From: Burkholderiales bacterium
GTDB taxonomy: Bacteria; Pseudomonadota; Gammaproteobacteria; Burkholderiales; Burkholderiaceae_D
Length of the DNA stretch: 32,000 nt
Assembly (NCBI GenBank): GCA_016177875.1
Contig: JACOUL010000045.1
Coordinates: 1,784 to 33,783, forward strand
Direction: 5' to 3'
The notes below the pieces were generated by a model. That model saw nothing but the letters and a program-made list of their open reading frames with translations. It had not been told where the DNA came from and did no database searches. Shown piece after piece: positions 1 to 29,889 of the stretch. The position numbers and the translations under genes were made by a program. Every line of letters starts with the position of its first letter. The first letter of the stretch is position 1.

Positions 1-231
1 TTGTTCGGTCAGGGCGCAGCCATGTTGGGCGACGATGCAAACCACTTGATGCCTGGAGTAATCTCGGCCGTCAACGACGCTGATGGCGAGCGCACGGGCA
101 TTGCCGAGCTGGGCGGCAGCCGTTACGTGGTGCTGGAGCATGCGATGGGCACAGCATCGGAACCGCGCGGCCGGATCTTGATCCTGACATCCTTGGAGGG
201 AGGCGCGCATGGCGATTGGAACGATCAGTGA
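1..231 (+). CDS. 3' end (76 codons) of an unidentified ORF entering from the left edge
   Basis: The frame is open from base 1 to TGA at 229-231. Its stop overlaps the next gene's ATG (209), suggesting operon coupling. No diagnostic motif is present in the fragment. Confidence 0.35.
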   Translation: MFGQGAAMLGDDANHLMPGVISAVNDADGERTGIAELGGSRYVVLEHAMGTASEPRGRILILTSLEGGAHGDWNDQ

Positions 232-1054: not shown

Positions 1055-1055
1055 T

Positions 1056-2363: not shown

Positions 2364-2893
2364 TGAAACGCTTTTTGCTTGTGGACGACGAGATAAATGT
2401 TCTGAACGCGCTGCAGAGAATACTGCGGCAGAGACTGGGCGACATCGATGTGAAAGTCGAAACCTGCTCCGATCCGGTGGAAGCGCTGGCGCGCATCGGC
2501 GAGATGTCCTTCGACCTGGTGATATCGGATCAGCGCATGCCGATGATGACGGGCGTGGAATTTCTCAAGGCGGTTCGAAAAATTCAGCCTGATGCGGTGC
2601 GCTTGATGTTGAGTGCTTATTCTGAATTCAGCGCAGTGGTCAATGCGGTGAACGAAGCTGAGGTCTTCCGTTATATCGCCAAGCCGTGGCAGCCGGAAGA
2701 CTTGGAGCAAGTGATCCGGCTTGCGCTGGCACGCCGCGAACAGATCCTGGAGGACAAGCGTCTCGCCGACGAAATGCGCGTGCAGCGCGGCGCCATGTCG
2801 GCGCAGGAACTGGAGGCCAAGCGCTTAGAAGACGAGGAACCGGGAATCACGAAGGTGAATTGGGGGCCGGATGGCTCGGTTCATTTGGAATGA
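2360..2893 (+). CDS. Stand-alone response regulator receiver (REC) protein with a short charged C-terminal tail
   Basis: 177 aa with LLVDDE, DLVISDQRMPMMTG and FRYIAKPW. An ATGA overlap with the upstream gene lies at 2360-2363. Confidence 0.8.
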   Translation: MMKRFLLVDDEINVLNALQRILRQRLGDIDVKVETCSDPVEALARIGEMSFDLVISDQRMPMMTGVEFLKAVRKIQPDAVRLMLSAYSEFSAVVNAVNEAEVFRYIAKPWQPEDLEQVIRLALARREQILEDKRLADEMRVQRGAMSAQELEAKRLEDEEPGITKVNWGPDGSVHLE

Positions 2894-2918
2894 ACGGATA
2901 GCCGGGGAGTCAAGGTAA

Positions 2919-3359
2919 ATGGATATCCTCCAGGACGAAGCGCTGTTTGCCGGTCTGAAGGCACTGGCAGAGAGCGCTTTCCCCAAGCACTGCAAGAACT
3001 GCGGACGTATATTCGAGTCGGCCGAGCAATTCCTGCGCGAGACCAGGAAAATCGACCAGAAACGCTCAGGCTTGAAGCAAAGCTGGGACGACAACGACGT
3101 TCCCATCGTCGAAGTCTATCGGAATTGCCCTTGCGGTTCGACCTTGATGGATTTTTTCTCCGACCGCCGCGATCTTTCGCAGAATGGCTTGGCGCGTCGC
3201 GAGAAATTCGGGAAACTCATGGGCCAACTGATCGCTCATGGATGGCAACACGATACGGCGCGCGCGGAACTTTTGAAGGTTTTGCGCGGCGAGAAAAGCG
3301 AATTGATCGAGCAATTGAGAGCGGCTCAACTTTCTAAAACCAACAATGGAAACCAATAG
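2919..3359 (+). CDS. Small hypothetical protein with a CxxC...CxC cysteine cluster (putative zinc-binding)
   Basis: 146 aa with C25-x2-C28 (HCKNCG) and C70-x-C72 (NCPCG). It sits between REC genes, and its 3' end overlaps the next ORF's start (3346). Confidence 0.5.
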   Translation: MDILQDEALFAGLKALAESAFPKHCKNCGRIFESAEQFLRETRKIDQKRSGLKQSWDDNDVPIVEVYRNCPCGSTLMDFFSDRRDLSQNGLARREKFGKLMGQLIAHGWQHDTARAELLKVLRGEKSELIEQLRAAQLSKTNNGNQ

Positions 3360-3732
3360 CGATTCGGTGTTGATCGCCGACGACAATCATATATCGCTCG
3401 ATCTGTTAAAAGGCTTGCTGGCAAGCTTAGGATATGTCGACATTAAGTGTGTAATGGACGGCGATGCGGCGATAGCGAGCTATCAAGGGAAAAAGTCTGA
3501 CATTCTTTTCCTCGACATAAACATGCCGGTAAAGAGTGGACTGGATACGCTCAAAGAAATTCGCGCCGTCGATCCGAACGCATTTGTCGTTATCGTCAGC
3601 GGCGAATGCTCCGCGGCCAACATCCAGCAAAGTTTGGCGCTCGGTGCACAAGGCTTTGTAGTAAAGCCGTATAGCGTATCTCGCGTCAAGGAGGCGTTGG
3701 ATAAATACCGAAAGGGCAAGACAAGCGTCTGA
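3346..3732 (+). CDS. CheY-like single-domain response regulator
   Basis: 128 aa with VLIADDN, ILFLDINMPVKSG, VVIVSG and GFVVKP, which are the REC-domain acidic pocket, T/S and K positions. Confidence 0.8.
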   Translation: METNSDSVLIADDNHISLDLLKGLLASLGYVDIKCVMDGDAAIASYQGKKSDILFLDINMPVKSGLDTLKEIRAVDPNAFVVIVSGECSAANIQQSLALGAQGFVVKPYSVSRVKEALDKYRKGKTSV

Positions 3733-3744
3733 GTCCGCCTGGAC

Positions 3745-6006: not shown

Positions 6007-6036
6007 GATGGATCGTTCTCGAGGAACTGCGCCGGA

Positions 6037-7338
6037 CTAGGATTTTCCGGAACCGGCACCGCCACTGGAGCCGCTTTTGGAGTCGTAATAGTAGGTCACG
6101 CGCTTTCTCGGGCTGAGATAGTCGTAGATTGCACGCGGCAGCTGGCCTGGGCGTATGCTTGCCGTCACACCCAAATCTGCCGACTCTTCCGCCAGATCGA
6201 GAATGATCGCGCTGTCTTTGGGAATTTCCGGGTCGTACACCAAGACGCGCGGCCGCAATGGCTTGCCGATATTGACGTTCATGACCAAACCGACCGCTTC
6301 GTTCGACAGGCGTACCAAGGTGCCCGGCGGATAAACGCCCAGGCAGCGCACCATGGTCGTCAATGCGGCAGGATCGAATTGGGCGCGCCGATGCGCATAC
6401 ATCTTCGACAAGGCTTCATGCGGCGTGAGCGATTGCGATGGGTCGACATGGTTGCATAAATTGTCATAGACGTTGGCGATCGTGACAATGCGCGTGATCA
6501 ACGGGATAGCTTCGCCTTTCAACTTATCCGGATAACCGGTGCCGTCCATGTATTCGTGATGATGGACGATCGCATCGAGCACCGCGTTGCCCATGCCGGC
6601 TTTCTTAGCGATTTCGTATCCATACCGCGTATGCAAGTTATAGAGGTCTTGTTCCGGCTTGGTAAGCGCTTCGGTTTTGAGCAGCACTTTGCTCGGCACG
6701 TCGACTTTACCAAGATCGTGGAACAGGGCGGCTGATCCGACCACCTTGATCTGATCATGCGTACACTTCAATTCATGTGCCAGCATCATCGCCAAGACGG
6801 ATACGTTCAGCGAATGGAAATACATCTCTTCCTCGCCGAAATTTTTTTGGATCAGATGCATGATCGTGTCGTTATCGGTCAGGAAGGCTTCCGCCATGGT
6901 GTTGACCAATTTTCCGGCTTCGGCGATCGTTTCCTGCGGACGCGAAAAAATATTCTTGTCGATGTTCTTGACCGTCGTTGCGGCGTGCACGAATTTTTCT
7001 TCGCAGCGCTTGATTTGTTCGCGCTGCTTCTCAAGCTGTTCCAAGCGTGCGCGTTTCGCGTCCGTGATATTGGCGTAGACGGTTGCATTCGGCGGTGCCG
7101 GTGCGGCCGGCGCTTGCTGTGTCGACGGCTCGGGTGCCCGCGGCGACACCGGGTCGCTCTTGGAAGGTATATAGCGGATATGTTTGAGGTCCAGCGCCTT
7201 CAACTCATCGATCTGCTTTTGGCTGATGATCTTGAATGAATTCATCGGGAAGGAATGCTGAAACCAGCTCAGGTCAAGCCGGATGAACATGCCGATGCGA
7301 ACCTTGTCGATCGAGATGAGCTGACTGTCTTCCGCCAT
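6037..7338 (-). CDS. HD-GYP domain c-di-GMP phosphodiesterase-type protein with a DUF3391-like N-terminus
   Basis: 433 aa. The N-terminal ISIDKVRIGMFIRLDLSWFQHSFP is DUF3391-like. HD is intact (LFHDLGK), and HHHEYMDGTGYP is intact at 6529-6564. The gene lies 30 nt upstream of the hybrid kinase on the same strand. Confidence 0.85.
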   Translation of the reverse strand: MAEDSQLISIDKVRIGMFIRLDLSWFQHSFPMNSFKIISQKQIDELKALDLKHIRYIPSKSDPVSPRAPEPSTQQAPAAPAPPNATVYANITDAKRARLEQLEKQREQIKRCEEKFVHAATTVKNIDKNIFSRPQETIAEAGKLVNTMAEAFLTDNDTIMHLIQKNFGEEEMYFHSLNVSVLAMMLAHELKCTHDQIKVVGSAALFHDLGKVDVPSKVLLKTEALTKPEQDLYNLHTRYGYEIAKKAGMGNAVLDAIVHHHEYMDGTGYPDKLKGEAIPLITRIVTIANVYDNLCNHVDPSQSLTPHEALSKMYAHRRAQFDPAALTTMVRCLGVYPPGTLVRLSNEAVGLVMNVNIGKPLRPRVLVYDPEIPKDSAIILDLAEESADLGVTASIRPGQLPRAIYDYLSPRKRVTYYYDSKSGSSGGAGSGKS

Positions 7339-7414
7339 GTCGTAGAGTAATTTAATTATTTCCCTACAATATAACGGGGATTTTTAGCGGCGGGTGGATT
7401 GTGTTGTCAGAAAT

Positions 7415-7444
7415 CACGGCATATCGCTTCATCGACATGCCGTG
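7415..7444 (-). terminator. Possible weak intrinsic terminator downstream of the glycine-zipper gene
   Basis: An inverted repeat CACGGCAT (7415-7422) / ATGCCGTG (7437-7444) has a 14-nt loop. On the minus strand it is followed by ATTTCTG, which is only a weak U-tract. Confidence 0.25.
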
Positions 7445-7515
7445 AACGAGAGGGGAGGGAAAGACGGCCGAATTTCAGGTCAAATTGCTAACATTTTTGC
7501 ATCGTGCATCAGCGG

Positions 7516-8205
7516 TCAAGCATGCGCCATTAATTTGCCGTTGACGACTTTAACGCGGTCGCCGACTTGCCAGCCTTCTTGCGTTGCTAACGGTACGGTG
7601 CGTACCGACCCGTCTTCCATGCGGATCTTCGCTTGATAAGTGGTCGTGGAGCGGGAACGCTTTTCGATTTCGTTGCCGGCGTAACCGCCGCCCACTGCGC
7701 CCGCAACGGTCGCCAAGGTGCGGCCATTGCCGTTACCCACTTGATTCCCCAGTACGCCGCCCAAGACCGCACCGGCGACGACACCGACGCCGCTCGGTTT
7801 TGCTTGGTGCTGCACGGCATGCACGGAAACAATACGGCCGCAGCTGCGGCAAACCTTAGGCGCTTGCGCAACCGGTGCGTTGTATTGAGCGCCGCTTTGA
7901 GCACGGGGGCGAGTCGATTGGATGGCGGCGGGTTGTTTTGCCGATGCTGTTTTCGGCGGTGCGGGCAGCGGCTCGGCCTTTTCGGCGGGGGCTAAGTTAG
8001 CAACGCCTTTCATCTCGGTTGTCGAGGCCGCGGTAGTCGAGACAGGCGGCGTGCTTGCCAAATTTGCAGCCGGCGCATTATTGCTATGCGAATCCGGCAA
8101 TAGGCCAGTAATGGCGGCGACGCCGGTGAGGCTCACCAGCGTAACGGAAACGGCCGCAACGGCCACCAAAGGATGAATGCGGCTAGGCGTTTTGCCAACT
8201 TCCAT
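7516..8205 (-). CDS. Membrane-anchored glycine-zipper (Rick_17kDa/SlyB-like) protein
   Basis: 229 aa from ATG 8205, with GGAGG 5 nt upstream; the ORF track starts at TTG 8217. It has an N-terminal hydrophobic helix and an Ala/Pro-rich linker. These are followed by CRSCG and the glycine zipper GVGVVAGAVLGGVLGNQVGNGNGRTLATVAGAVGGGYAGN. Confidence 0.65.
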   Translation of the reverse strand: MEVGKTPSRIHPLVAVAAVSVTLVSLTGVAAITGLLPDSHSNNAPAANLASTPPVSTTAASTTEMKGVANLAPAEKAEPLPAPPKTASAKQPAAIQSTRPRAQSGAQYNAPVAQAPKVCRSCGRIVSVHAVQHQAKPSGVGVVAGAVLGGVLGNQVGNGNGRTLATVAGAVGGGYAGNEIEKRSRSTTTYQAKIRMEDGSVRTVPLATQEGWQVGDRVKVVNGKLMAHA

Positions 8206-8330
8206 AATTACCTCCAATCAATTCATGCGACTGTGCGTATGAATTGATTTTCGCTAGGAAGTTTCGGCAAGGCTAGACTGAATGGGTTTCAGATGTAAGC
8301 CTTTGTAACGCTTGCCGAATACATCAAACT

Positions 8331-9878: not shown

Positions 9879-10983
9879 TTAGACGCCTTGTTTCAGCGAG
9901 GCGGCGATGAAGTCGTCGAGGTCGCCGTCCAGCACGGCCTTGGTATTGCCGACTTCGTAATTGGTGCGCAAATCCTTGATGCGCGACTGGTCCAGTACGT
10001 AGGAGCGGATTTGATGGCCCCAGCCGATGTCGGTCTTGGCATCTTCCGCCTTTTGCTGCTCGGCCATGCGCTTGCGCAATTCCAGCTCGTACAAGCGCGA
10101 CTTCAGCATGGCCCACGCTTCGGCGCGGTTGCGGTGTTGACTGCGGTCGTTCTGGCATTGCACGACGATGCCGGACGGCGCGTGCGTCAAGCGCACCGCA
10201 GAGTCGGTCTTGTTGATGTGCTGGCCACCGGCGCCGGATGCGCGAAAGGTGTCGATGCGCACGTCGGCCGGGTTGACGTCGATTTCGATCGAGTCATCCA
10301 CTTCCGGGTAGACGAATACGCTGGAGAACGAGGTATGGCGGCCGTTGGCGGAATCGAAAGGCGATTTCCTCACCAGGCGATGCACACCGGACTCGGTGCG
10401 CAAAAAGCCGTAGGCATATTCGCCTTCGACTTTGATCGTGGCGGTCTTGATGCCGGCCACGTCGCCTTCGGATTCTTCCAGAAGTTCGGTCTTGAAACCT
10501 TTGCGTTCGCAGTAGCGCAGATATTGGCGCAGCAGCATGGAAGCCCAGTCTTGCGCTTCGGTGCCGCCGGCGCCGGCTTGAATATCGATGAAGCAGTTGT
10601 TGGGGTCCATCGGATTGCTAAACATCCGGCGGAATTCCATATCCTCGACTTGTTTTTTCAGCTTCTCTGCATCTTCTTCGATGGCGACGATGGTATCTTC
10701 GTCCTGCTCTTCGCGTGCCATCTCGAATAAATCCGAGGCATCTTGCAAATCGGCTTTGATCTGCGTCAGGGAAAGCACGACGGCTTCCAGGGATTTTTTT
10801 TCCTTGCCGAGATCCTGTGCCCGTTTCTGGTCATTCCAGACGTTGGGGTCTTCCAGTTCGGCGTTGACTTGTTCGAGCTTCTCCGACTTTACGTCAAAGT
10901 CAAAGATACCTCCGCAGTTCAGCTTCGCGGGTGGTGAGGTCCGCCAAGAGGGCGGAGAGGGCGTTGAGACGTTCGGCTTCCAT
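9879..10983 (-). CDS. prfB: Peptide chain release factor 2, requiring a programmed +1 ribosomal frameshift
   Basis: The ORF-track piece (9879-10778) contains SPF and GGQHVN-type ([15 protein letters not shown]) RF2 motifs. An upstream 27-codon frame starts at ATG 10983 and ends at an in-frame TGA (10900-10902) in the context CTT TGA C. The +1 frame continues directly into the main ORF. Confidence 0.93.
10899..10913 (-). promoter_or_regulatory. prfB autoregulatory +1 frameshift site (internal SD-like GGAGG, then TAT CTT TGA C)
   Basis: The minus strand reads GGAGG TAT CTT TGA C. GGAGG is at 10909-10913, CTT at 10903-10905 and TGA at 10900-10902. This matches the canonical RF2 recoding signal. 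Confidence 0.9.
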
Positions 10984-11017
10984 GATGACGAGTTGTGCGA
11001 TTAATCCTAAACCACGC

Positions 11018-11023
11018 ATTATA
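11018..11023 (-). promoter_or_regulatory. Candidate -10 box (TATAAT) for prfB-lysS
   Basis: The minus strand reads GAGTATAAT, 34 nt upstream of the prfB ATG. No convincing -35 element was found, and the site lies only about 25 nt downstream of the kinase gene's stop. Confidence 0.3.
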
Positions 11024-11047
11024 CTCGACGGGGCGTTTTGCCGATGG

Positions 11048-13411
11048 TTACAGCCGACGCGCCAATTCCTGGATTTTTCTTATCTTGAAGTAAATCGGCA
11101 GCAGTCGCCAGGCCAGCAGCCCGATGCCGCCGAGTATGGTCAAAGGCACGATGTTGGGACCGAGGAATATCGGTGCAAAAACCGCGGCGAGCAATACGAA
11201 GACGAGCACTTGCGGGCTTAACCATCCGGCATTGGCAGCCTGCCTTTCGGTTAAGGCATCGATTTGCGTGCGAATCAGAATAACCAAGCCTTCCGCACGC
11301 ATGACGGATTTTTTTAATGCCATCCACGGTTCATCCGATCTGCCCGACGAGCGGATCTTTGCCAGCAAGTCGAAATAGCGGTCGAGCGCCGCAGCCAGCT
11401 CGTCGCTGCCGAGCAGTATCTGCATGCCATTGTCGGTGACTGAGTGTATGGCGGTAACGATGAGCGCAAATTCTTGCGTCAATTCGCGGCAGACGTTCAC
11501 ATCGTCATCGCGCCGCCGCGCGTCCGCCTTGATCTGCCGCTCCATGGCCTTGCGCGCTTCGGGCAGCAAAGATTCCAGGACCAATAGCGAAGTCGGATTC
11601 ATGGTTTGCACGTCGCCCATGCCGCCGATCCACGGGCAGTGCGTTTGAATCTTGACCAGCTCTGCCGATAGCCGCATGCGCAAGCGTTCCGCCCATTGCT
11701 CGTCGTAGGCTAGCGCCAACAGGCGTGGGTGCATATCTGTCGTAGCCGGGCGATTTGGTCCGGTTTGGCCGTAAACCAGCTGGTCGAAATTGGCGTATTC
11801 ATCGGGGCCGGAGGCCGGCTTGTTTTTATCGATGAGCGCGAGTCCGTCTTCCCACGCGTGGTCGAACTTGTCGCACATGGCATGCCAACGCTGCACGATC
11901 TCGGCTGCTTCCTGGTTGCCGGCGTCGGCATAGGCTTCCAGTACACGATGGCGGTACAGCAGATCGAGCCAATGGGCGGCGTCGGCATCTCCTTTCAATG
12001 CCTGATTGGCGCGCGACAAAATGGACGGCAGCTCGATGGATTCGCCGCGCCACACCGGCGGAATCCCCGGTGCAAGAAGCAGAATCAGCTTGAGCAGCTG
12101 GGCATCCACATGCATTTGCTTGTCGAAGCGGACTTCAAGCAGCAGGCGTACGGCATTTTGGTCTTTCTGCACATCCCGAAACCAGGCTAGCAGCTGGCCG
12201 TTGTTGATGTCGGCTGCACCGTCGCGCCAATTGCGCGCCAATGCCACGGCCAATTGCTCTTTGCTGTGACAGAGCTCTTTGCCGACATGATACGGAGCGG
12301 TGAATTGACCGCCTGCTCCTGCCTCGACCGGTTCGGTAAGACTGCCGTCATTGGCTAGCCAGCGGCCGACTTCATCTGTGCCCCATCGCGTTTTCGGATC
12401 GCGCAGCAATAGGCCGCGCAAGAGTATGCGCACGCGACGGTCGGACACGCCGCTCGTGTCCATGCTTCTTGTCGTCAAGTGGTGCAGGATCACCGCTTCC
12501 GACAAGCCGGCGAAGGGATGCTTGCCTTGCCCGGCTTCAAGCAAAATCATGCCCAGCGCCCAATAATCCGATTTACCGTCAATGACGCCGGATAAACTCT
12601 CGGGCGAAGCATACGGCAAGGTACGGGCGGCGCCTGTGAAACGTTGTGTGGCGTCGAGCACGGAGGAAATGCCGAAATCGGTCAAGACCAGGTCGAGCGG
12701 CTTTTCAGTGCGCATTAGGATGTTTTCCGGCTTGAGGTCGCGATGCACCAGGCCGGCATTGTGTACGGCGGCGATTGCACTTGCCAGTTCGCGCACCACG
12801 GCGTGCAGCAATTCGCCGGCAAGGGGGCCGGAACGCAGGCGCTCGCGTAGCGAGCCGTGCTCGCAAAACTCCATCAGCTCATAGGCGTATCCATCGGAGA
12901 CACCGGACTCCAACACTTCAACGCGATGACTGGCATCGATTTTCGCGATGCGTTCCTGTACATCGCGTTTCGGCTGTATGCCGTGACGATACACTTTTGC
13001 TACGCGTGCCGGTCCGCCGCTATGTTCTTGCACAAGCAGCAGCTCAGCCTCCGAACCTTGGGCCGGCATCGGCTTGACGATGCGATAGCGTTTTCCGAGC
13101 GCTTGCGGCAAATTCACCAGGCTGGTCGTTTGATCGCGCGAAGTGAGAGCGGCGCCGTCGTTCAGGGGACGGTTGCAATACAGGCAGTTTGTGCTGCCGG
13201 CAGGATTTGGCTGGCCGCAATCCTCAAAGGGGCAGAGTACGGTATCGGCTTCCGGCAAAGCCTCTTGCGTGACAGACGCTTGCTCGGGAGATGCGGCCTG
13301 TTTCAAGATCAGATCTACGCCGGCCAGCAGCGCACCGCAAACGCAGCGCATGATGCTCGGCGCGTTCTCAGCGCCGCAAGTCGGGCAGCGGCGGACGTAG
13401 TCTGCGCTCAT
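11048..13411 (-). CDS. Hanks-type Ser/Thr protein kinase with two N-terminal zinc ribbons, a long helical middle region and a C-terminal transmembrane hairpin
   Basis: 787 aa. The zinc ribbons are CPTCG...CVCG and CPFEDCG...CLYCN. The kinase motifs are RVAKVY (the beta3 Lys), HRDLKPEN (12722-12745), DFG and ASPE. Two hydrophobic helices occupy the last ~60 aa (VLVFVLLAAVFAPIFLG / LTILGGIGLLAWRLLPIYF). Confidence 0.85.
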   Translation of the reverse strand: MSADYVRRCPTCGAENAPSIMRCVCGALLAGVDLILKQAASPEQASVTQEALPEADTVLCPFEDCGQPNPAGSTNCLYCNRPLNDGAALTSRDQTTSLVNLPQALGKRYRIVKPMPAQGSEAELLLVQEHSGGPARVAKVYRHGIQPKRDVQERIAKIDASHRVEVLESGVSDGYAYELMEFCEHGSLRERLRSGPLAGELLHAVVRELASAIAAVHNAGLVHRDLKPENILMRTEKPLDLVLTDFGISSVLDATQRFTGAARTLPYASPESLSGVIDGKSDYWALGMILLEAGQGKHPFAGLSEAVILHHLTTRSMDTSGVSDRRVRILLRGLLLRDPKTRWGTDEVGRWLANDGSLTEPVEAGAGGQFTAPYHVGKELCHSKEQLAVALARNWRDGAADINNGQLLAWFRDVQKDQNAVRLLLEVRFDKQMHVDAQLLKLILLLAPGIPPVWRGESIELPSILSRANQALKGDADAAHWLDLLYRHRVLEAYADAGNQEAAEIVQRWHAMCDKFDHAWEDGLALIDKNKPASGPDEYANFDQLVYGQTGPNRPATTDMHPRLLALAYDEQWAERLRMRLSAELVKIQTHCPWIGGMGDVQTMNPTSLLVLESLLPEARKAMERQIKADARRRDDDVNVCRELTQEFALIVTAIHSVTDNGMQILLGSDELAAALDRYFDLLAKIRSSGRSDEPWMALKKSVMRAEGLVILIRTQIDALTERQAANAGWLSPQVLVFVLLAAVFAPIFLGPNIVPLTILGGIGLLAWRLLPIYFKIRKIQELARRL

Positions 13412-14071
13412 CTACTGTCTCCAGGAGACTGCGCTGAATTCGATGCCACGCTCCTTGCAAGACGCTTCCAAGGCCGCCATATCGCCGCGCGCCGGAATGC
13501 CGACATACCAAATGCGTTCGCCATCCGCCATGGCTTGGATGCGTTTATCGGCGCTGTCCGCCGGCGCATCGACATATTCGGCATAGCGTTTTTTGCCGCG
13601 CTCGGAGAGCAGCACCAGCGGCTGGTTGGATGAGCCGCGCCAGAGATGCGTGAGCGGCCGCGCTTCCACGAAGGGTTCCGGTATCAACGCATCGAGTTTA
13701 TCCAGCAACCGGCGATGCCGCTGTTGCAGTGTTGCCAAGGGATAGCCGCTGTAACACAGGATATCGAAATCGGCGCCGCGATCGGAGCGCCAATGGAGTA
13801 AGCCGTCCAGTAGGGCGGATAAAGCTTGCGGCTGGTCGAAGGGTTCGCCGCCGGAGATGGTGACGCCGTCAAAATCCATGTCCGTCGTAATCTGCCTGCA
13901 CCAGCCGAGCAGCCGTGCTACCGTCATCTGCCGGCTCGGATCGGTCTTCCAAGTGTCTTGCGAAACGCAGCCTTTGCAACCGATGCTGCAGCCTTGCAGC
14001 CAGATGCCGATGCGCCGGCCTGGGCCAAGCACCGTCACCGGAAAGTGCGCCTTGTTGACGGCGATTTTCAT
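13412..14071 (-). CDS. Radical-SAM activase-like protein (NrdG/PflA-type 4Fe-4S single-cluster domain)
   Basis: 219 aa. VLGPGRRIGIWLQGCSIGCKGC carries CX3CX2C (Cys codons at 13988-13990, 13976-13978 and 13967-13969). The ISGGEP SAM-binding motif is present. Small size and N-terminal cluster placement match anaerobic RNR/PFL activases. Confidence 0.8.
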   Translation of the reverse strand: MKIAVNKAHFPVTVLGPGRRIGIWLQGCSIGCKGCVSQDTWKTDPSRQMTVARLLGWCRQITTDMDFDGVTISGGEPFDQPQALSALLDGLLHWRSDRGADFDILCYSGYPLATLQQRHRRLLDKLDALIPEPFVEARPLTHLWRGSSNQPLVLLSERGKKRYAEYVDAPADSADKRIQAMADGERIWYVGIPARGDMAALEASCKERGIEFSAVSWRQ

Positions 14072-15906
14072 GCGGTTTGTATGGTCAGCGTGATGACTTT
14101 ATCGGCTTCGGTGATTTGCGTGACGACCACACGCTGCTTGCCTTCCAGGTCGTGCTCGAATAGGGCACGCGACAAGGGATTGATGAACACCGATTCCAGT
14201 TGATTGCCGATGCCGCGTCCGCCGTGATCGAGGTCGCGCACGCAGCGTTCCAGCAGCGCGGCGCGGATTTCAGGCGGCATGGCGAGCTGCAGTTTGAATT
14301 CTTCGTGAAGCCGGCGCGCGACATTTTTCAGCATGCCGTCGAAAATGCGTTCAGCTACGTCGGGGGCGATGAAGTTGAACACGACGATATTGTCGCCGAT
14401 GCGGTTAAGCAGCTCGGGCCGCGACAATTTGAACTTGAAGTAATTGCCGATGGATTCCTTCACCTTCGATTCGACTGCGTCGTAAGGGTCGCCGGGACGC
14501 ACGTTTTGCACGCGATTGCCGCGCGCGTCTTCCACATAGATGCCGAGGTTGGAGGTGAACACCAGTATCGTCTCGGAAAAATACGCCGTATCGCCGCGGC
14601 CGTCGGTCAGGCGGCCGTCTTCCAGGATTTGCAGGAATTTGTCGAGTATGCGCGGATGGGCTTTTTCGATTTCGTCGAACAGGACAACCGAGAAGGGTTT
14701 TTCGCGCACGGCATTGGTCAGTTCGCCTCCCGCGTCGAAGCCGACATAGCCCGGCGGCGCGCCGAGCAGACGAGCGCCGGTATGTTCTTCGGCGAATTCA
14801 CTCATGTCGAAACGCAGATAGGCGCGCTCGTCGCCGAATACCAGTTGCGTCAGCGTTTTGGCCAGTTCGGTTTTTCCGACGCCGGTCGGTCCGGCGAAGA
14901 ACAGCACGCCGCGCGGCCGGCTGCCGCCGGAGCGTGCTTGCGCACCGGTCAATCCCATCACCGAGCGCTTAAGAATATCGAGCGTCTTCACCACCGCGGG
15001 ATGCTGGCCCTTGACGCGATCTTCGATGAAGGATTGGGCGTCGCGGATTTTCTCGCGCAGATGATCCTTGCGCCACGGATTGTCGAGCGCGCCGACTTTA
15101 TAACAGCGCACCGCATCGTCGATGTCCTTGATGCCCAGACGCTGGCGCTCCGCCAGCTCGGTGATGTCGGACAGCGCGGTTAAAGCCATGCCTTCCGTGC
15201 CCTGGGTAAAGTTTTTGATGAATTGGGCACGCGCCGCTTCGTTTGCTTCGCCGTAGCCCGCGAACAGCGGAGCCAATTGCGCCGCCGCCGCTTGCCGTGT
15301 TTCATAGTCCGGTTTGCCGATGACGAGACTGGCGACGCGCTCGCTGTCGAGCGTGAACCAGGACGGCAGATCCTGCATGCGGTTGACCATCCACAGCACC
15401 GGGTTGAATTGCGGCAGACCGGCGCCGCTGCTCGGCACGACCGGCGCGGCTGTTAATGACAACTTCTCGGCGGCGACGAAGAAACGATGCTCGCCTTCGC
15501 TCAAGTGTTCGACATGGCGTGTCAATCGCGAGGCGAAGTCGAGAACCAGCGCACAACGTGCTTCGCGCTGCGTGCTCAGGTTTTTCATCACATTGGCAAG
15601 GGTTTCCAGGCTGACTTGCTGGCTGCCGTTGGAGAGCTTCAATTCGAATAAGCGTTCAGCCAATTCGCGCTGCGCCGGTTCGTCGGGATAGGCACGTATG
15701 CCGTCCGCAGGATCGTAAACCAGCAGCAGTTTGTAGTCGCGAAGCTTGAGCGATTCCCAAAGCGCGCGCAGCAGCGGCACCAATACCGGGCCGGTCGCCA
15801 GGGGGGCAAGAAAATTATCGCGAATGCTGCCGGACACCACGAACTGCGAGCGGATGGGCAGCAGGCGTTCGAGGTCGGCAAGCCAGCGCGGTTGAGGAAT
15901 CGTCAT
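14068..15906 (-). CDS. AAA+ ATPase with a Clp/Hsp100 D2-type module (AAA_2) and an unassigned N-terminal half
   Basis: 612 aa. Residues ~295-455 are near-consensus ClpA/ClpB D2. They include Walker A GPTGVGKT (14869-14892), LLGAPPGYVGF, Walker B VVLFDEIEKAHP (14659-14688 region), LEDGRLTD and sensor-1 VFTSN. A D2-small-like segment (RPELLNRI) follows. No ClpB N-domain or Walker A is recognisable in residues 1-290. Confidence 0.85.
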   Translation of the reverse strand: MTIPQPRWLADLERLLPIRSQFVVSGSIRDNFLAPLATGPVLVPLLRALWESLKLRDYKLLLVYDPADGIRAYPDEPAQRELAERLFELKLSNGSQQVSLETLANVMKNLSTQREARCALVLDFASRLTRHVEHLSEGEHRFFVAAEKLSLTAAPVVPSSGAGLPQFNPVLWMVNRMQDLPSWFTLDSERVASLVIGKPDYETRQAAAAQLAPLFAGYGEANEAARAQFIKNFTQGTEGMALTALSDITELAERQRLGIKDIDDAVRCYKVGALDNPWRKDHLREKIRDAQSFIEDRVKGQHPAVVKTLDILKRSVMGLTGAQARSGGSRPRGVLFFAGPTGVGKTELAKTLTQLVFGDERAYLRFDMSEFAEEHTGARLLGAPPGYVGFDAGGELTNAVREKPFSVVLFDEIEKAHPRILDKFLQILEDGRLTDGRGDTAYFSETILVFTSNLGIYVEDARGNRVQNVRPGDPYDAVESKVKESIGNYFKFKLSRPELLNRIGDNIVVFNFIAPDVAERIFDGMLKNVARRLHEEFKLQLAMPPEIRAALLERCVRDLDHGGRGIGNQLESVFINPLSRALFEHDLEGKQRVVVTQITEADKVITLTIQTA

Positions 15907-16970
15907 TTGATCGTACGGGTCAAGGGTTGGGTATTCGGCAGGTGAGTCTCCTCGTCGGCAAATGTCGGTAGCTTGCCGGCGTCAACCAATTGCACCGGCA
16001 ATTCGCCCGCTGCAAGCCGCCGCGTGACGTTGAAGCTGATGCCGCGCGCTTCCAATGCTTTCATGAGCGCCGGGAATTCGGCGCACCATCGGTCTTCGGC
16101 AAGGTGGTCGAGCACGCTACGTTCGTTTTCGCCCTCGGCGACTGCGCGGATGACGTTGAAGTTCGCCGTGCTGGTCTTGGGATCGATGCGCATGCGCACC
16201 ATGTAATTGCCCCAGCCCTGACGGCGGAAATGCACGACGCCGCCTTCGACGAACAGCGTTTCGGCAATCTCTTCGACTTGATAGCCGAGATCCTTGAGCG
16301 ATTGGCCGACGATGACGGCGCTTGCTTCCTGCACCTGGCGCCGTTGCGTCTCTTCGGCCAGCGTCTGGATGCGTTTGCGTAGTTCGGTGGCCAGCAAATC
16401 GGCGCGTTCGCCGGGCAGGCAATTGTCGAGTTCGAGCGCGACGTCTTGCAAATCCGCCGGCGGCGGGCCGAGGTGCGCTATGCGTGCGAGCAGCCGCTGC
16501 GCAATACTTTGCGGCACGGAAGCGGTCGCCGATATATGCATTTCGCCCAACGGTGCAGAGGATTCGTCTGCCAGCCGCGCGGCTTCGGTCAGGAGGATGG
16601 CGCGCAGGTCGTCGGCCAGCGTTTGCAAGGCGCGCACATAGGCTGCCTGCGCCTGGATGTCGGTGCCGTCGGGTGCTTGCGGGCGAGTCGCACGGGCCTG
16701 TTCGCCGAGTCCCAAGTTGTCCGCCAATGCGATCAGTTGATCGAGCGTGGTTTGCGCGGCTAAGGTTTCTTGCTCAAGCGCTTCCCGGCCTTGCTCGCCG
16801 GCGCCGGTTTGATGCGCTTGCCGGGCACGCTGGTCTTCGCTATGCGCCCGGCGCAAGTTGGATTCATTGACGTAGCCTTCATAAACGGCGGCCGCCGCGC
16901 GGATCGCCGCTGCGGAGAGCAGTGCGGCTACAGGATTTGCTGCGACGACGGCAGTGATCGGACCGCTCAT
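15903..16970 (-). CDS. Hypothetical protein (Ala-rich hydrophobic N-terminus, Gln/Ala-rich helical middle, globular C-terminal region)
   Basis: 355 aa and the first gene of the cassette. Its stop overlaps the ATPase start (ATGA at 15903-15906). No motif was recognised. Coding is supported mainly by length, operon position and absence of a better alternative frame. Confidence 0.55.
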   Translation of the reverse strand: MSGPITAVVAANPVAALLSAAAIRAAAAVYEGYVNESNLRRAHSEDQRARQAHQTGAGEQGREALEQETLAAQTTLDQLIALADNLGLGEQARATRPQAPDGTDIQAQAAYVRALQTLADDLRAILLTEAARLADESSAPLGEMHISATASVPQSIAQRLLARIAHLGPPPADLQDVALELDNCLPGERADLLATELRKRIQTLAEETQRRQVQEASAVIVGQSLKDLGYQVEEIAETLFVEGGVVHFRRQGWGNYMVRMRIDPKTSTANFNVIRAVAEGENERSVLDHLAEDRWCAEFPALMKALEARGISFNVTRRLAAGELPVQLVDAGKLPTFADEETHLPNTQPLTRTIK

Positions 16971-17289
16971 GAGCTTTTAGTCGTTTTTGAATCGGCGTTG
17001 CTCCAGTATAGCGGTAGGCCGGGTTTTGGGAAATGCTGTGGACTATCAAGAAAACGGCTGTTCGTTTGCTTGCATTGGTAGACGTGCAACGAAAGCGTCC
17101 GCCAATTGTCAACGAATGCAAAATCCCAGGCGCTTATTAGTCTGTCATAGGCGCATCGCATGTTCGGCTGCTGGCCTTTCTGATATCGTACCGCTTCGAT
17201 AAAAACTTCAAATAGAGTCGGACAGTCCGGATTCGGCGCGCCGGTTTTTTCCGATCATAGACTTGCATACCTGTTCGAAAATTGATCCG

Positions 17290-18654
17290 ATGGTGAGCTT
17301 CTGCAACGCGCAAGGCGAGGCAGTGCGGGGCACGATCATCAATCTGCAAAGAAAATCCCTGGTGATGGAGGTATACAACCCTTACTCCATCGTGCAAGTC
17401 AGTGAAGTCCTCGCGGAAGTGACGGTACGATTCGGCGCGCAAATCGCTTATCTCGGCAAAGCAGTCGTCATCAGCCTGGTCAATACCGGACTTACCGCCA
17501 TCGTTTCGGTAACGCTCATCGACGAATGGCGTGAATTGAGCAACATGGCGGTTGCGCCGGGAAGCGTCGGAGCGGAAGCGGAAGCGTTCGTACGGGACTG
17601 GGCAGACCGTTTCCAGATCCGGCACGATTACCAAATCGTGGTGAATGAAATGCGCGCGTTTTTATCCGACGTGTCGCGCTGGATCGAGCAAGTGGACTTA
17701 TCGGACTCGCTGCCCAAGGTAAATGGCCAATTGCGCCCGGATGTCTTTTACGAACTAGCGGCTCCCTTGATGAGGAGGACCAAGTTTTACCTCGACATGC
17801 TGGAGAGCGAAGCCTCGCAAGTCGAAGAGGAGTGGACCCCGGCGCATCGTTCCTACGCGCAAACGGCATTGCATCCCTTGTTGCTCAGGGCGCCTTTCGT
17901 ATTCCGCACCTATACGAAGCCGCTGGGATACGCGGGCGACTACGAAATGGTCAACCAGATCTTGGGCGATCCGCGCCAGGGACCCAATACTTATTTTCAA
18001 ATGGTGAATGCCGCTTTCCTGCAGGCGGCGGTCGCGATCGCCCATCGCAATCGCATCGATATTCTCGTGGACTTTTTGAAGCGGAAGGCGGACGCCGCCA
18101 GGGAAGCGGGCAAGGTATTCCGTATTCTGAACGTCGGATGCGGTCCGGCTGTCGAGATAAAACGTTTTCTGCAGAGCTGTCCGCATCCCGAGTTCCTTGC
18201 TTTCGAGCTGCTCGACTTCAGCGAAGAAACCTTGGGGTGGACGCGTGATACGCTTACCGCCGTCGTCGAACAAATCGGCAAGCCGGTGGCCATTCATTAT
18301 GTGCACGAATCGGTGCATCAATTGCTCAAGCGCCGTATCGATCCGAATTCGGACGCCTCGCGCGAATTTGACGCCGTTTACTGCGCCGGCCTGTTCGATT
18401 ACCTGTCCGACAAGGTTTGCGCAAGGCTTACCGCGCATTTCGCCGCACGAACCAATCGCGGGGGCTCGATCTTGATCACCAATGTGCATTCGAGCAATCC
18501 GGAAAAGTTTGGCATGGAACACCTGTTGAATTGGTTTTTGATTTATCGAGACGAGGCGAAAATTGCGTCGCTTTTTCCGTCTCAGGCGGTTGCCCGCGAA
18601 GTTTGGGTCGATGCGACGGGAGTGAATGTTTTCGCTGCGGCGAACATCCTTTGA
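17290..18654 (+). CDS. Class I SAM-dependent methyltransferase with an N-terminal extension (PhcB-like architecture)
   Basis: Motif I is FRILNVGCGPAVE, with the acidic post-I residue in LLDFSEE. AVYCAGLFDYLSD and ILITNV also fit the class I fold. The ATG at 17290 is preferred; the ORF track starts at TTG 17263. Confidence 0.75.
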   Translation: MVSFCNAQGEAVRGTIINLQRKSLVMEVYNPYSIVQVSEVLAEVTVRFGAQIAYLGKAVVISLVNTGLTAIVSVTLIDEWRELSNMAVAPGSVGAEAEAFVRDWADRFQIRHDYQIVVNEMRAFLSDVSRWIEQVDLSDSLPKVNGQLRPDVFYELAAPLMRRTKFYLDMLESEASQVEEEWTPAHRSYAQTALHPLLLRAPFVFRTYTKPLGYAGDYEMVNQILGDPRQGPNTYFQMVNAAFLQAAVAIAHRNRIDILVDFLKRKADAAREAGKVFRILNVGCGPAVEIKRFLQSCPHPEFLAFELLDFSEETLGWTRDTLTAVVEQIGKPVAIHYVHESVHQLLKRRIDPNSDASREFDAVYCAGLFDYLSDKVCARLTAHFAARTNRGGSILITNVHSSNPEKFGMEHLLNWFLIYRDEAKIASLFPSQAVAREVWVDATGVNVFAAANIL

Positions 18655-18671
18655 TAGGGCAGGAAGATCGG

Positions 18672-20000
18672 ATGGCTAAAGATCTGCATGCGGAATACGA
18701 AATAAACCTGAGAGAATTTCGCGTCGAATTCAGCCGCGGCGGCGCTTATACCGGCATTGTCCTGATCCTGCTTGGCGTCGGCTTGGATTACAGTCTTTAT
18801 CCGCACATGCAGCTCGAATTTGCGGCCGTCAGAATCGGCGTTTCTTTCCTGATTTACGGCATCATTCGGATGATGGAAACGAATTGGGGAAAGGATAGGA
18901 TCCAGTGGCTCACATTCGCCTGGCTGGTGCTGCCGCAGATCATGATTGCGTGGATGATTGCCGTGACGGAAGGGCCAAGCTCGATCTATTACGCCGGGTT
19001 GACCCTCGCCATGTATGCGGCCGGTATCGTGCTGACCTTCGGCCTTTGGCAAAACATCGTCTTCGGTGCCTTGACCATACTGTTTTATGTGCTTGCTTGC
19101 GCGTTTCATCCCAACAGTGCCGGGTTGCGCGGCATTTTTGCCGTCAACGTGATGCTATTGTTTATGGCGGCCACGGTCAGCGCCGTCTATACCTACTTCA
19201 ACGAACGCGGACGTTTTATGCTGTTTCGCCTCAAAGCGGAACTAGCGAACAAGAATGAACAGTTGGAAGAAACGAATAAGAATTTGACGGAAATCAAAGG
19301 GCATATGCTCCAACAGGAAAAAATGGCAGCCCTCGGCACGCTTTCCGCTGGGCTGCTGCATGAGGTAAATAATCCAGTCAATTATTGTCTGATGGCGGTC
19401 GACGTCGCAATGGAAAATCCGGCGGCGAAATCCAATGCGCCGCTTTATGAATGCCTTGTCGATGCGAAAGAAGGCATGCAAAGAATCCACCACATCGTGT
19501 CAGACCTCAAGACTTTCGCGTATCGGACCAGGGATACGTCGAGCTTGAAAAAAGTTTTTCTTTTGGAAAAAGCCATCGATTCGGCGGTTCGCCTCGTGGG
19601 GCATGAAACCAAGGGCATTGCGATCAGCCGCGACCTGCCATCCGACACCCTGGTGCAAGGGGACGAGGCGGCCATTGTCGGCGTGCTGGTCAACTTGCTG
19701 AGCAACGCAGCCTTGGCGATACGTGCGGCAAACCGGGCGGAGCCATCCGTTCATCTGACTGCCGCTTGGGAAGGCAACAGCTTGCGTGTTACGGTGCAGG
19801 ATAACGGCCCCGGCATCGCCCCCGAAAATCTCGCGCGCGTGTTCGAACCGTTTTTCACCACGCGCGAAGTCGGAAAAGGCCTTGGGCTGGGGCTGAGTAT
19901 CAGCTATAGCGTGATTGAGCGCCACGGGGGCACATTGACCGCCGAAAGCGCTGTCGGCGAATGGACCAGAATGATTTTCGATCTGCCGCGGGCCGCATAA
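18672..20000 (+). CDS. Polytopic membrane sensor histidine kinase (about 6 TM segments, HisKA, HATPase_c)
   Basis: 442 aa from ATG 18672, preceded by AGGAAG; the ORF-track start at 18417 overlaps the methyltransferase. It has six hydrophobic helices. The H-box is EKMAALGTLSAGLLHEVNNP, the N-box is LVNLLSNA, and the G-boxes are DNGPGI / GKGLGLGLSISYS. Confidence 0.85.
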   Translation: MAKDLHAEYEINLREFRVEFSRGGAYTGIVLILLGVGLDYSLYPHMQLEFAAVRIGVSFLIYGIIRMMETNWGKDRIQWLTFAWLVLPQIMIAWMIAVTEGPSSIYYAGLTLAMYAAGIVLTFGLWQNIVFGALTILFYVLACAFHPNSAGLRGIFAVNVMLLFMAATVSAVYTYFNERGRFMLFRLKAELANKNEQLEETNKNLTEIKGHMLQQEKMAALGTLSAGLLHEVNNPVNYCLMAVDVAMENPAAKSNAPLYECLVDAKEGMQRIHHIVSDLKTFAYRTRDTSSLKKVFLLEKAIDSAVRLVGHETKGIAISRDLPSDTLVQGDEAAIVGVLVNLLSNAALAIRAANRAEPSVHLTAAWEGNSLRVTVQDNGPGIAPENLARVFEPFFTTREVGKGLGLGLSISYSVIERHGGTLTAESAVGEWTRMIFDLPRAA

Positions 20001-20037
20001 TTCCGGCTGCGGGGAGCCACGTGAAGAGGAGCAAGAA

Positions 20038-21060
20038 ATGACCGATCAAGGCATCATAGCCCCGCTGATTCTGTTCGTTGACGATGAGGCGGTGGTAGTC
20101 AAATACTTTCAACGGGCGATTGATGCCTTGGCTCCGGTAATTACTGCCAGCAGCGTCGAGGAAGGAAGGCGCATACTTGATGAACATGCGCATACGCTCG
20201 CGGTGCTGGTGTCCGATCAGCGCATGCCGGGCGGATACGGCAATGAGTTGCTGCACTACGCTCGAACCCGATATCCGGACATCGTGCGAATACTGACTAC
20301 GGCTTATTCAGAGCTCGAACATACCATCGAGGCGGTCAATCAAGGGCAGATCCATCGATATATCCAAAAGCCGTGGGAAATATCTGCGCTCAGAATGGAA
20401 TTGAAGCAGGCGCTTGAATTGGCGGCATTGCGCAAGGATCATTCACGGCTTCTGCGCGAGAAAATGACCGTGCGGCAAAAGCAAATTGTCTCGAACCGCA
20501 TCGGCGCCTTGCATTCCCTTTGCGCCAGCCTTGCCGCATCGCCGCAGATATTGCCGATTGAAGTATATTTGGCGGCTGCCGCAATCGTCGGCGTGGAGAC
20601 GCCTGAGCCGGACTGGTTGCTGACCGACTATTCGGATTTGATCAGTGCGGAAGCGCACCGCAGCGGCCAATTCGGACATGATGTCCGCAATAAGCTGGCG
20701 GACATCCGGCGGCGCTTTCCGGATCGGCAGGGTAAGGATGTACTCACGCTATTGCCGGAAATGATCGAGGCTGAAATTTCCGCCGATGGAACGATCGACT
20801 TTCCCGATCGGCGGAATTTTGCGGAGTTTCTGGAAACGCCTTCTAATGCACCGATTTCATCGAAACACGCCGCTTGGCTGGCATTTCTGATCTGGTTGCA
20901 CGATTCGGGTTGTTCGTTGAGGCTGACGAAGCCGGAAGCCGGCGTGCAGTGCGGTCTTTACGCGTCGGTTACGCCTACCCCCGACAAGCTCGCGGAATGG
21001 ATTGAGCAGTTTTCCGACATGCTCGTTTTGAACAAAAAGGAAAACGCGCGTTTTATCTGA
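20038..21060 (+). CDS. Response regulator: REC domain plus a ~200-aa C-terminal domain with no recognisable HTH
   Basis: 340 aa, with AGGAG 8 nt upstream. The REC domain has ILFVDDE, VLVSDQRMPGGYG and HRYIQKPW. The C-terminal region begins with an H-box-like helix (REKMTVRQKQIVSNRIGALHSL). Confidence 0.8.
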   Translation: MTDQGIIAPLILFVDDEAVVVKYFQRAIDALAPVITASSVEEGRRILDEHAHTLAVLVSDQRMPGGYGNELLHYARTRYPDIVRILTTAYSELEHTIEAVNQGQIHRYIQKPWEISALRMELKQALELAALRKDHSRLLREKMTVRQKQIVSNRIGALHSLCASLAASPQILPIEVYLAAAAIVGVETPEPDWLLTDYSDLISAEAHRSGQFGHDVRNKLADIRRRFPDRQGKDVLTLLPEMIEAEISADGTIDFPDRRNFAEFLETPSNAPISSKHAAWLAFLIWLHDSGCSLRLTKPEAGVQCGLYASVTPTPDKLAEWIEQFSDMLVLNKKENARFI

Positions 21061-29501: not shown

Positions 29502-29517
29502 TTTAAATTTGTCACTT

Positions 29518-29883: not shown

Positions 29884-29889
29884 AGAGCC

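Follow-up and report, generated by a model that had tools for sequence, protein, structure and literature searches.

Sets of kinase, PP2C and FHA proteins are known to gate molecular machines, the D2 tiers of ClpB thread polypeptides, and activating enzymes of the NrdG/PflA type abstract a hydrogen atom from a glycine of their partner protein. Here we describe a cassette of four minus-strand genes, at 11048-16970 of a 32-kb stretch of a Burkholderiales genome (GCA_016177875.1, contig JACOUL010000045.1; this whole stretch is referred to as the window), in which relatives of these components are encoded side by side. The genes specify a conserved protein of a new family (gene 1), an Hsp100-type AAA+ ATPase (gene 2), an NrdG-like radical S-adenosylmethionine (SAM) protein (gene 3) and a zinc-ribbon membrane Ser/Thr kinase (gene 4). 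The module has no name yet but is widely conserved in bacteria, and is probably an anti-invader or stress switch. Our preferred reading goes further and sees a kinase-controlled AAA+/radical-SAM conflict module, encoded as one autonomous four-component operon and working by the mechanism proposed below; we consider the chances of this full reading to be evenly balanced.

The arrangement of the four genes as one operon is supported by conserved stop/start coupling together with a single promoter-like site upstream. Genes 1 and 2 share a 4-nt ATGA overlap (15903-15906), as do genes 2 and 3 (14068-14071), and the junction of genes 3 and 4 at 13412/13411 reads CAG-TAG-ATG-AGC, with the stop abutting the start. 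Identical coupling is found in the orthologous loci L004, L022 and L059. The site 5' of gene 1 is the one sigma-70-like match in 10700-17400, and most orthologous loci have a -10-like hexamer of their own 35-55 nt 5' of gene 1. No common operator was seen by eye 5' of gene 1 in 72 loci, and no structured RNA or riboswitch was detected near the operon at E up to 0.1. An earlier note, made from the sequence alone, had already set out this single-operon arrangement; its coordinates, gene lengths, ATGA overlaps and TAG/ATG abutment proved exact when the open reading frames (ORFs) were checked, and the domains, motifs and residue numbers that it gave for genes 2 to 4 are correct according to Pfam and our reading of the sequence.

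The four families are not confined to this genome. Two patterns from the N-terminal domain of gene 2 were scanned over 185,579 species genomes and 258 relatives were found. The best 80 of the 258 are Betaproteobacteria plus one Methylococcaceae metagenome-assembled genome (MAG), with Undibacterium, Rhodoferax, Gallionella, Sideroxydans, Azonexus, Propionivibrio, Methyloversatilis and Ottowia among the betaproteobacterial hosts. Genes 1-2-3-4 occur in one order and on one strand in 54 of the 61 betaproteobacterial loci with enough flanking sequence to be assessed (44 contiguous), the exceptions being four loci with genes 1 and 2 alone, two without gene 4 and one without gene 1. The earlier note had proposed a four-gene system, and co-occurrence elsewhere, both here and in the shuffled variants described below, bears this out. 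The chromosomal flanks are unrelated between lineages, and no fifth conserved gene was found, the largest additional cluster being present in 12 of 82 loci, all in Undibacterium synteny. Orthologues share with the window proteins a median identity of 76% for gene 2, 68% for gene 3, 53% for gene 1 and 51% for gene 4; the faster divergence of genes 1 and 4 is as expected of sensor or target-facing parts. Every catalytic or metal-binding residue is invariant across the 56 orthologue sequence sets on which residue conservation was judged, and the motif residues listed below, all of them unvarying or almost so, are conserved far beyond chance.

More distant relatives retain the components in other orders and with other partners. 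A locus with 36% identity in the AAA+ N-domain (L084) encodes a gene 1-like protein, the AAA+ protein and the radical SAM protein, and a GC-rich metagenome contig (L086, 32%) carries a zinc-ribbon protein, a gene 1-like protein, FHA, PP2C, a kinase with a gene 4-type C-terminal region and transmembrane (TM) segments, a multi-TM protein, AAA+ and radical SAM. On Rhizobium megaplasmids and on a Caballeronia replicon (35-36%) the order is AAA+, radical SAM, a kinase fusion of 2086-2101 aa, in which the kinase is joined to DUF4011, an SF1 helicase and an MTES_1575 nuclease, and finally a gene 1-like protein starting MSGP. A plasmid of Aristaeella lactis (Clostridia, 25%) has a DUF4011 giant, a kinase, a weak gene 1-like ORF (E=0.024), FHA, radical SAM, AAA+, PP2C, DUF6273 and a further kinase. 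When compared with PADLOC, the giant DUF4011 proteins match PDC-S37 (1e-264, 9e-139), Hhe (8e-111, 8e-65) and MkoA/MkoC. The four families thus stay linked through changes of order in at least two well-supported lineages, the gene 1-like match in Clostridia being weak, and on the kinase side the partner is swapped, a TM hairpin in some lineages and a helicase-nuclease in others.

Gene 2 is divided into two tiers of very different character. Its C-terminal tier has Pfam matches to AAA_2 at 331-503 (E=3e-47) and ClpB_D2-small (E=1e-5), which together span residues 331-595, and it aligns with the D2 tiers of ClpC and ClpB in the PDB at E=1e-58 to 1e-51. The motifs GPTGVGKT (339-346, with K345), VVLFDEIEKAHP (407), GRLTD (431) and FTSN (450) are present, and K345, D411/E412, GY(V/I) of the GYVG-type pore loop, the sensor-1 residue N453 and the Arg finger R502 are invariant. 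With Walker A/B, pore loop, sensor-1, Arg finger and D2-small all complete, this tier should thread polypeptides and is predicted to be active. The position of the ClpP-binding VGF of ClpC reads VQN in the aligned gene 2, which has no ClpP-docking loop. No equivalog cut-off is reached: gene 2 aligns with model positions 553-845 of ClpB (TIGR03346) at 251 bits against a cut-off of 1232, and scores 212 against 885 bits for ClpV1 and 207 against 993 for ClpA. The earlier note had recognized this D2 half correctly but left the N-terminal half unassigned, and that half can now be placed. It has no Pfam match before residue 310, Clp_N included, but its AlphaFold2 model (predicted local distance difference test, pLDDT, 91.8) matches p97/Cdc48, Rix7 and proteasomal ATPases in Foldseek with a probability of 1.00 and E ~5e-6. 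Where Walker A would lie, the sequence is SGSIRD (GNIRD in the family consensus), with GK[ST] absent and G26, R29 and D30 conserved, which is why we regard the tier as dead; as modeled, the N-terminal half is a degenerate, P-loop-less AAA+ D1 tier. The family defined by the N-terminal 310 residues comprises, at 50% identity, 652 clusters, mostly of proteins of 600-640 aa. We also considered Dodola DolB (E=3.5e-14) and PDC-M37B (E=2e-26) as identities for gene 2; both were rejected, as the match is limited to residues 326-454, and none of genes 1, 3 and 4 is a DolA (DUF6414) or PDC-M37A partner.

Gene 3 matches Pfam Fer4_12 (E=7e-25), NrdG over positions 10-151 of the 154 in TIGR02491 (E=3e-25, 89.1 bits against a cut-off of 126.1) and the anaerobic ribonucleotide reductase (RNR) small subunit of PHROG (E=5e-24), while its likeness to PflA is restricted to the surroundings of the cluster and SAM motifs. 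It contains CSIGCKGC at 28-35 (CX3CX2C) and GGEP at 74; GPG.R, C28/C32/C35 and GGE (G74-G75-E76) are invariant in the 56 sequences. A family-specific C-terminal extension of ~65 aa is kept in distant members. No NrdD, PFL-like or other glycyl-radical enzyme is encoded within the 32-kb window, and in at least 54 loci the neighbors of gene 3 are the AAA+ and kinase genes. The near-full alignment to NrdG, the absence of a glycyl-radical enzyme from the window and the invariance of C296 and G322 in gene 1 make it most likely, by analogy with these activases, that gene 3 acts on a protein.

Gene 4 begins with two Cys4 zinc ribbons (C9/C12/C23/C25 and C60/C65/C76/C79), of which all eight cysteines are invariant in the 56 sequences. 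The Pkinase match at 158-348 (E=2e-29) reaches 103 bits and exceeds the gathering score of 31.7. HRDLKPEN (223, with D225), DFG (245) and SPE (269) are in place, K139, H223-R224-D225, N230 and D245-F246 are invariant and (A/S)PE is conserved, and the kinase is predicted to be catalytically intact. The region of residues 351-720 has no Pfam, PHROG or PDB match and its homologues are same-family kinases or fragments alone; it can still be recognized in the kinase of the distant locus L086 (E=1.8e-11). At 726-757 the Kyte-Doolittle score rises above 1.6 in 19-residue windows, and a C-terminal hairpin is a feature of 54 of 55 orthologues. PADLOC matches to PD-T4-6, mad6 and MkoA (E=2e-34 to 4e-23) and to PglW raised these as possible identities. 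They were rejected because the PADLOC matches cover the kinase domain alone and the partner genes are absent, with no MADS, BREX or MkoB partner in the cassette; NCBIfam gives 79.8 bits against a cut-off of 460 for MAD6 and 48.1 against 990 for PglW.

The earlier note called gene 1 an orphan. It does lack an annotated family, with no match in Pfam, NCBIfam, PADLOC, PHROG or PDB sequences, but it is no orphan, having at least 608 homologues at 52-67% identity. Aligned homologues show an invariant MSGP N-terminus joined by a hydrophobic segment, a variable, helical middle and a well conserved C-terminal domain (~228-330), which is recognizable in distant loci too. In the AlphaFold2 model (pLDDT 78.5) long helices lead into a small alpha/beta domain, and no significant fold match to the model was found in the PDB (best E=0.076) or BFVD; a COR-domain fold was proposed by the search with a probability of 0.85 and rejected at a TM-score of <0.2. 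M1-S2-G3-P4, C296, G322 and P325 are invariant in the 56 sequence sets. C296 is on a helix, and G322 lies at the tip of a beta-hairpin, G322..P325-V326, with the sequence RRLAAG322ELPV, whose Pro-Val is invariant in close relatives, and C296 and G322 stay invariant even where AAA+ identity has fallen to 25-36%.

Features of the cassette and their coordinates in the window
Feature	Coordinates	Strand	Basis
Promoter-like site TTCCCA-16-TATACT	17005..17032	-	~35 nt 5' of gene 1; consensus match alone
Gene 1, 355 aa	15903..16970	-	ORF, ATG start
Gene 2, 612 aa	14068..15906	-	ORF, ATG start
Gene 2 N-terminal tier (~residues 1-280), degenerate D1-like AAA+	15067..15906	-	AlphaFold2 + Foldseek
Gene 2 C-terminal tier (285-612), ClpB/ClpC D2-type AAA+ + D2-small	14068..15054	-	Pfam, NCBIfam, PDB
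Gene 3, 219 aa	13412..14071	-	ORF, ATG start
Gene 3, NrdG-type radical-SAM activase-like	13412..14071	-	Fer4_12, TIGR02491, PHROG
Gene 4, 787 aa	11048..13411	-	ORF, ATG start
Gene 4 residues 9-79, two Cys4 zinc ribbons	13175..13387	-	CPTC...CVC and C-x4-C...CLYC from sequence
Gene 4 residues ~103-350, Hanks-type Ser/Thr kinase domain	12362..13105	-	Pkinase
Gene 4 residues 351-720, family-specific region	11252..12361	-	without known domain
Gene 4 residues ~726-775, C-terminal TM hairpin	11087..11236	-	hydropathy

From these components we infer an order of events, a substrate for the radical SAM protein and a biological role. On sensing a signal, either at the membrane or within the cytoplasm, the kinase would switch the module on by phosphorylation, and in other lineages PP2C and FHA partners would join it. 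The AAA+ motor would remodel, present or reset a protein substrate, and the radical SAM protein would abstract hydrogen on a protein, most plausibly at the hairpin glycine of gene 1. The outcome may be growth arrest or an attack on the invader, be it a phage or another mobile element, and in other lineages the helicase-nucleases fused or adjacent to the kinase could be the effectors. Gene 1 is, speculatively, the best candidate for the radical SAM substrate because G322 and C296 are invariant, because its gene overlaps the AAA+ gene, because its N-terminus is invariant as might be expected of a recognition tag, and because it is missing from L083, the one variant without a radical SAM gene. 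A stronger form of this idea holds that an NrdG-type activase has been recruited from ribonucleotide reduction to install a glycyl radical at Gly322 of gene 1, a coiled-coil protein that is not itself an enzyme, with the unfoldase presenting or resetting gene 1 and the kinase acting as the gate. A glycyl radical in air cleaves the polypeptide backbone, and the result could therefore be an oxygen-triggered one-shot switch in immunity or stress signaling. Such a radical-based one-shot mechanism, if true, would be without precedent; we rate it as improbable.

We lean slightly toward a role in conflict, above all because the kinase is fused or adjacent to helicase-nucleases of the Hhe/PDC-S37/MkoA type in other lineages. 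This leaning also draws on the unrelated insertion sites, on carriage by Rhizobium megaplasmids and on a type III restriction-modification (R-M) module inside the cassette of a Rhodocyclaceae MAG (L082, 10295-15103), where an N6_N4 DNA methylase and a ResIII helicase with an RE_endonuc domain lie between the AAA+ and radical SAM genes. Additionally, PIN/antitoxin pairs flank L002, gene 4 is related to defence kinases, and in Candidatus Aalborgicola (L068, 10408-12209) RtcB (E=6e-74) and PrfH (287 bits, above cut-off) follow genes 1 and 2 in place of the radical SAM and kinase genes. RtcB-PrfH is a known RNA/ribosome-repair pair.

However, a number of observations weigh against a conflict module working in this way. 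Four Rhodocyclaceae/Methyloversatilis-type loci (L061, L062, L067 and L068) retain genes 1 and 2 with no gene 3 or gene 4 within 8 kb, which suggests either decay or a two-gene sub-module using partners encoded elsewhere, and L083 (26%) comprises PP2C, kinase, a TPR protein, AAA+ and FHA with neither a radical SAM nor a gene 1-like gene. The hairpin sequence RRLAAGELPV differs from the canonical glycyl-radical motif RVxG[YFW], and gene 1 has no Pfam match to the Gly_radical domain and no significant fold match. The AAA+ protein is unusually conserved for an immune gene, at 65-85% identity across orders, and the synteny in Undibacterium points to stable inheritance by vertical descent. At ~45 loci the nearest two genes to either side were surveyed and are mostly of housekeeping or signaling type (methyl-accepting chemotaxis proteins, peptidases, PLD, AI-2E transporters, Hsp20, tRNA synthetases, PriA); among the 140 flanking ORFs, for which no background comparison was made, defence or toxin-antitoxin genes are few and scattered, namely 3 PIN, 3 PLD/DrmC-MkoB-like, 1-2 mad2/3 and a single match each to MTase_I, RtcR and PDC-S02. 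No phage or viral copies were found in INPHARED or IMG/VR. Finally, reversible PP2C/FHA partners suit physiological signaling as well as immunity.

The alternative that survives best is a physiological stress or proteostasis pathway, in which an Hsp100-like remodeller and a radical SAM protein modifier would be under the reversible control of a membrane kinase, with PP2C and FHA elsewhere, and the trigger would be envelope, redox/oxygen or heat stress. The housekeeping-like conservation of genes 2 and 3, the stable Undibacterium synteny, the character of the flanks (with Hsp20 neighbors in 3 loci), the reversible signaling implied by PP2C and FHA and the absence of the cassette from phages all favor it. 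Gallionella, Sideroxydans, Azonexus and Propionivibrio are microaerophilic or facultatively anaerobic, as the hosts often are, and the Fe-S/radical chemistry of gene 3 is oxygen-sensitive. Such a pathway is harder to reconcile with the patchy, unrelated insertion sites and the rarity of the module (258 of 185,579 species genomes by the two patterns scanned), with plasmid carriage, with a kinase fused or adjacent to Hhe/PDC-S37/MkoA-like helicase-nucleases, with an R-M module inside the cassette, or with a gene 1 and kinase that diverge faster than the enzymatic core. Overall, we regard the stress pathway as possible, though clearly short of even chances.

The invariant Cys and Gly of gene 1 and the translational coupling of the radical SAM gene to the cassette would also suit a precursor protein matured in the manner of a ribosomally synthesized and post-translationally modified peptide, with gene 1 modified by the radical SAM protein and by a kinase of class III/IV lanthipeptide type, and the AAA+ protein serving as a chaperone or exporter-coupling factor. 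The kinase domain of gene 4 does match LanL/LanKC and TOMM kinase models generically, but these matches are confined to that domain and reach 70.9 bits where the cut-off is 650. Neither the cassette nor any conserved neighbor encodes a lyase, cyclase, SPASM/RRE, protease or transporter, a 355-aa folded coiled-coil protein is unlike a leader-core peptide, and the helicase-nuclease fusions found elsewhere do not suit biosynthesis, so that we hold such maturation to be unlikely. That gene 3 is a plain activase of anaerobic RNR or of another glycyl-radical enzyme, lying next to the ATPase and kinase genes without functional meaning, is very unlikely in our view: NrdG is its top family match, near full-length, with the PHROG RNR subunit alongside, but it falls short of the equivalog cut-off, the window encodes no NrdD, PFL or other glycyl-radical enzyme, the gene overlaps gene 2 by 4 nt and abuts gene 4, it remains linked to the AAA+ gene at >54 loci and in different lineages, and its C-terminal extension is conserved and family-specific. 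An isolated regulatory fragment from a type VI secretion system (T6SS), with a ClpV-like ATPase and a PpkA-like kinase in a threonine-phosphorylation-like pathway, can be set aside almost entirely, for although gene 2 matches ClpV1/TssH over D2 at 212 bits and distant variants have kinase, PP2C and FHA partners, the score is far under the TssH cut-off of 885, ClpB fits better, Clp_N and an active D1 tier are lacking, and no T6SS structural gene occurs in the window or in ~90 related loci.

The surroundings of the cassette in the window can be described briefly. The cassette lies between prfB-lysS and recJ, an insertion site common to no other sampled locus, and its GC content (0.59-0.63) is raised over that of its surroundings (0.51-0.58); these two observations make the accessory insertion that the earlier note had suggested plausible. 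The genes recJ, prfB and lysS adjoin one another in E. coli and many other Proteobacteria, which would also make an insertion here plausible. The prfB gene (9879-10983, minus strand), followed by lysS, starts its reading frame at an ATG at 10983, and 26 codons further on it carries the canonical programmed +1 frameshift site of RF2, GGAGG-TAT-CTT-TGA-C (10899-10913, minus strand), owing to which the ORF list shows merely a 299-aa fragment with a GTG start. The end of gene 4 lies 64 nt upstream of prfB, and as no convincing terminator was found between them, transcription could run on into prfB-lysS. The interval from the cassette to recJ holds three divergent genes (17263-21060, plus strand), which encode a methyltransferase-like protein of 463 aa with a weak class I match (Methyltransf_25, E=2e-4), a histidine kinase and a response regulator with a 220-aa C-terminal part of no assigned family. 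This trio is present at no other cassette locus and may belong to the same inserted segment. Positions 1-8217 and 29040-31953 are crowded with signaling genes unrelated to the cassette, namely HDOD, two of REC-HD-GYP type, a hybrid PAS histidine kinase, CheX and a CheA-like kinase with PilJ/Hpt/HATPase.

Some orthologous loci have additional genes of their own. In ~12 Undibacterium genomes (L015, L017, L018, L023-L025, L031, L033 and others) a conserved ORF of 135-150 aa, at ~12910-13380 and with no NCBIfam match, lies directly 3' of the kinase gene and could be a lineage-specific fifth component or a mere syntenic neighbor. Between gene 1 and the AAA+ gene, two Azonexus MAGs carry an alpha/beta hydrolase (Hydrolase_4/Peptidase_S9; L047 7050-7898, L050 6975-7898), and the Methylococcaceae MAG a Laminin_G_3 protein that weakly resembles TafC (L002/L020 7197-7955); these inserts may be accessory parts or passengers.

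The earlier note knew of no named system or pathway with this composition, and its view stands against the models with which we compared the four proteins (Pfam, NCBIfam of June 2026, PADLOC of 2023 and PHROG), where every match to a named family lies below its cut-off or is confined to the generic kinase, AAA+ or radical SAM core. No model in these four collections covers gene 1, the N-domain of gene 2 or the C-terminal region of gene 4. No paper naming or describing the module was found in the accessible literature, DefenseFinder models and paywalled papers lying outside the comparison. Kaur et al. (2020; PMC7159879) mention radical SAM only for FtsH ternary systems and not for the architecture of genes 1-4. 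Ophion, which combines radical SAM, PHP and PRTase, was considered and is unrelated, and the other defence-discovery papers examined mention no such system. Two new protein families are defined here, the domain of gene 1 and a dead-D1/live-D2 Hsp100 subfamily with the 652 clusters given above. If the cassette is a working system, it would be the first in which a radical SAM protein of glycyl-radical-activase type is found outside metabolism, hard-wired to an unfoldase and to eukaryotic-like phospho-signaling, and it would extend radical SAM chemistry in conflict or stress biology beyond the viperin-type modification of nucleotides. It also offers a tractable four-gene model, with cultured hosts in Undibacterium and Rhizobium and with mutable residues in K345, E412, C28/C32/C35, D225 and gene 1 G322/C296, and the swap of TM hairpin for helicase-nuclease by lineage provides a natural handle on what the module senses and does.

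How, then, does the cassette compare with what has been described? As in ClpB, ClpC and ClpV, the C-terminal 330 residues of gene 2 form a near-consensus D2, but these Hsp100 proteins have Clp_N, an ATP-binding D1 and, in ClpB, an M-domain, whereas gene 2 has neither Clp_N nor M-domain, replaces D1 by a family-specific pseudo-AAA+ tier without a P-loop and scores 4-6x under every NCBIfam equivalog cut-off. The operons of the defence system Dodola (DolA/DolB) and of the PADLOC candidate PDC-M37 likewise encode a ClpB-like AAA+, with an AAA+ core of ~120 residues as the shared part. Gene 3 has GPG.R, CX3CX2C, GGE and a near-complete NrdG alignment in common with NrdG/PflA; it differs in its sub-cut-off score, in its extra C-terminal segment and in being linked to the AAA+ protein, gene 1 and the kinase, where NrdG/PflA pair with a glycyl-radical enzyme. 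Stk2, PD-T4-6, MADS Mad6, BREX PglW and Mokosh MkoA (kinase + helicase) possess an intact Hanks kinase domain as gene 4 does, but the gene 4 family is set apart by its own zinc ribbons, C-terminal region of 370 aa and TM hairpin. The DUF4011 SF1 helicase-nucleases Hhe and PDC-S37 are fused to the module kinase in Rhizobium and Caballeronia and adjacent to it in Aristaeella, whereas none is encoded in this window and gene 4 ends in its TM hairpin instead; the fusion of an MkoA/Hhe-like SF1 helicase-nuclease to an orthologous kinase in Rhizobium and Caballeronia is also the point of contact with Mokosh. In overall logic the closest parallels are the PpkA-PppA-Fha1 set of T6SS with ClpV, TerY-P and related conflict systems, whose T6SS, vWA and TerY components are absent from the module; there, as here, a Hanks kinase (with PP2C/FHA in variants) is wired to an NTPase and the effectors can be swapped. 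The logic of a kinase-regulated NTPase with exchangeable effectors is therefore a known one, while the core of gene 1, a dead-D1/live-D2 Hsp100 and an NrdG-like radical SAM protein has no described counterpart and is new as a system, in a role that we would place in conflict or stress biology.

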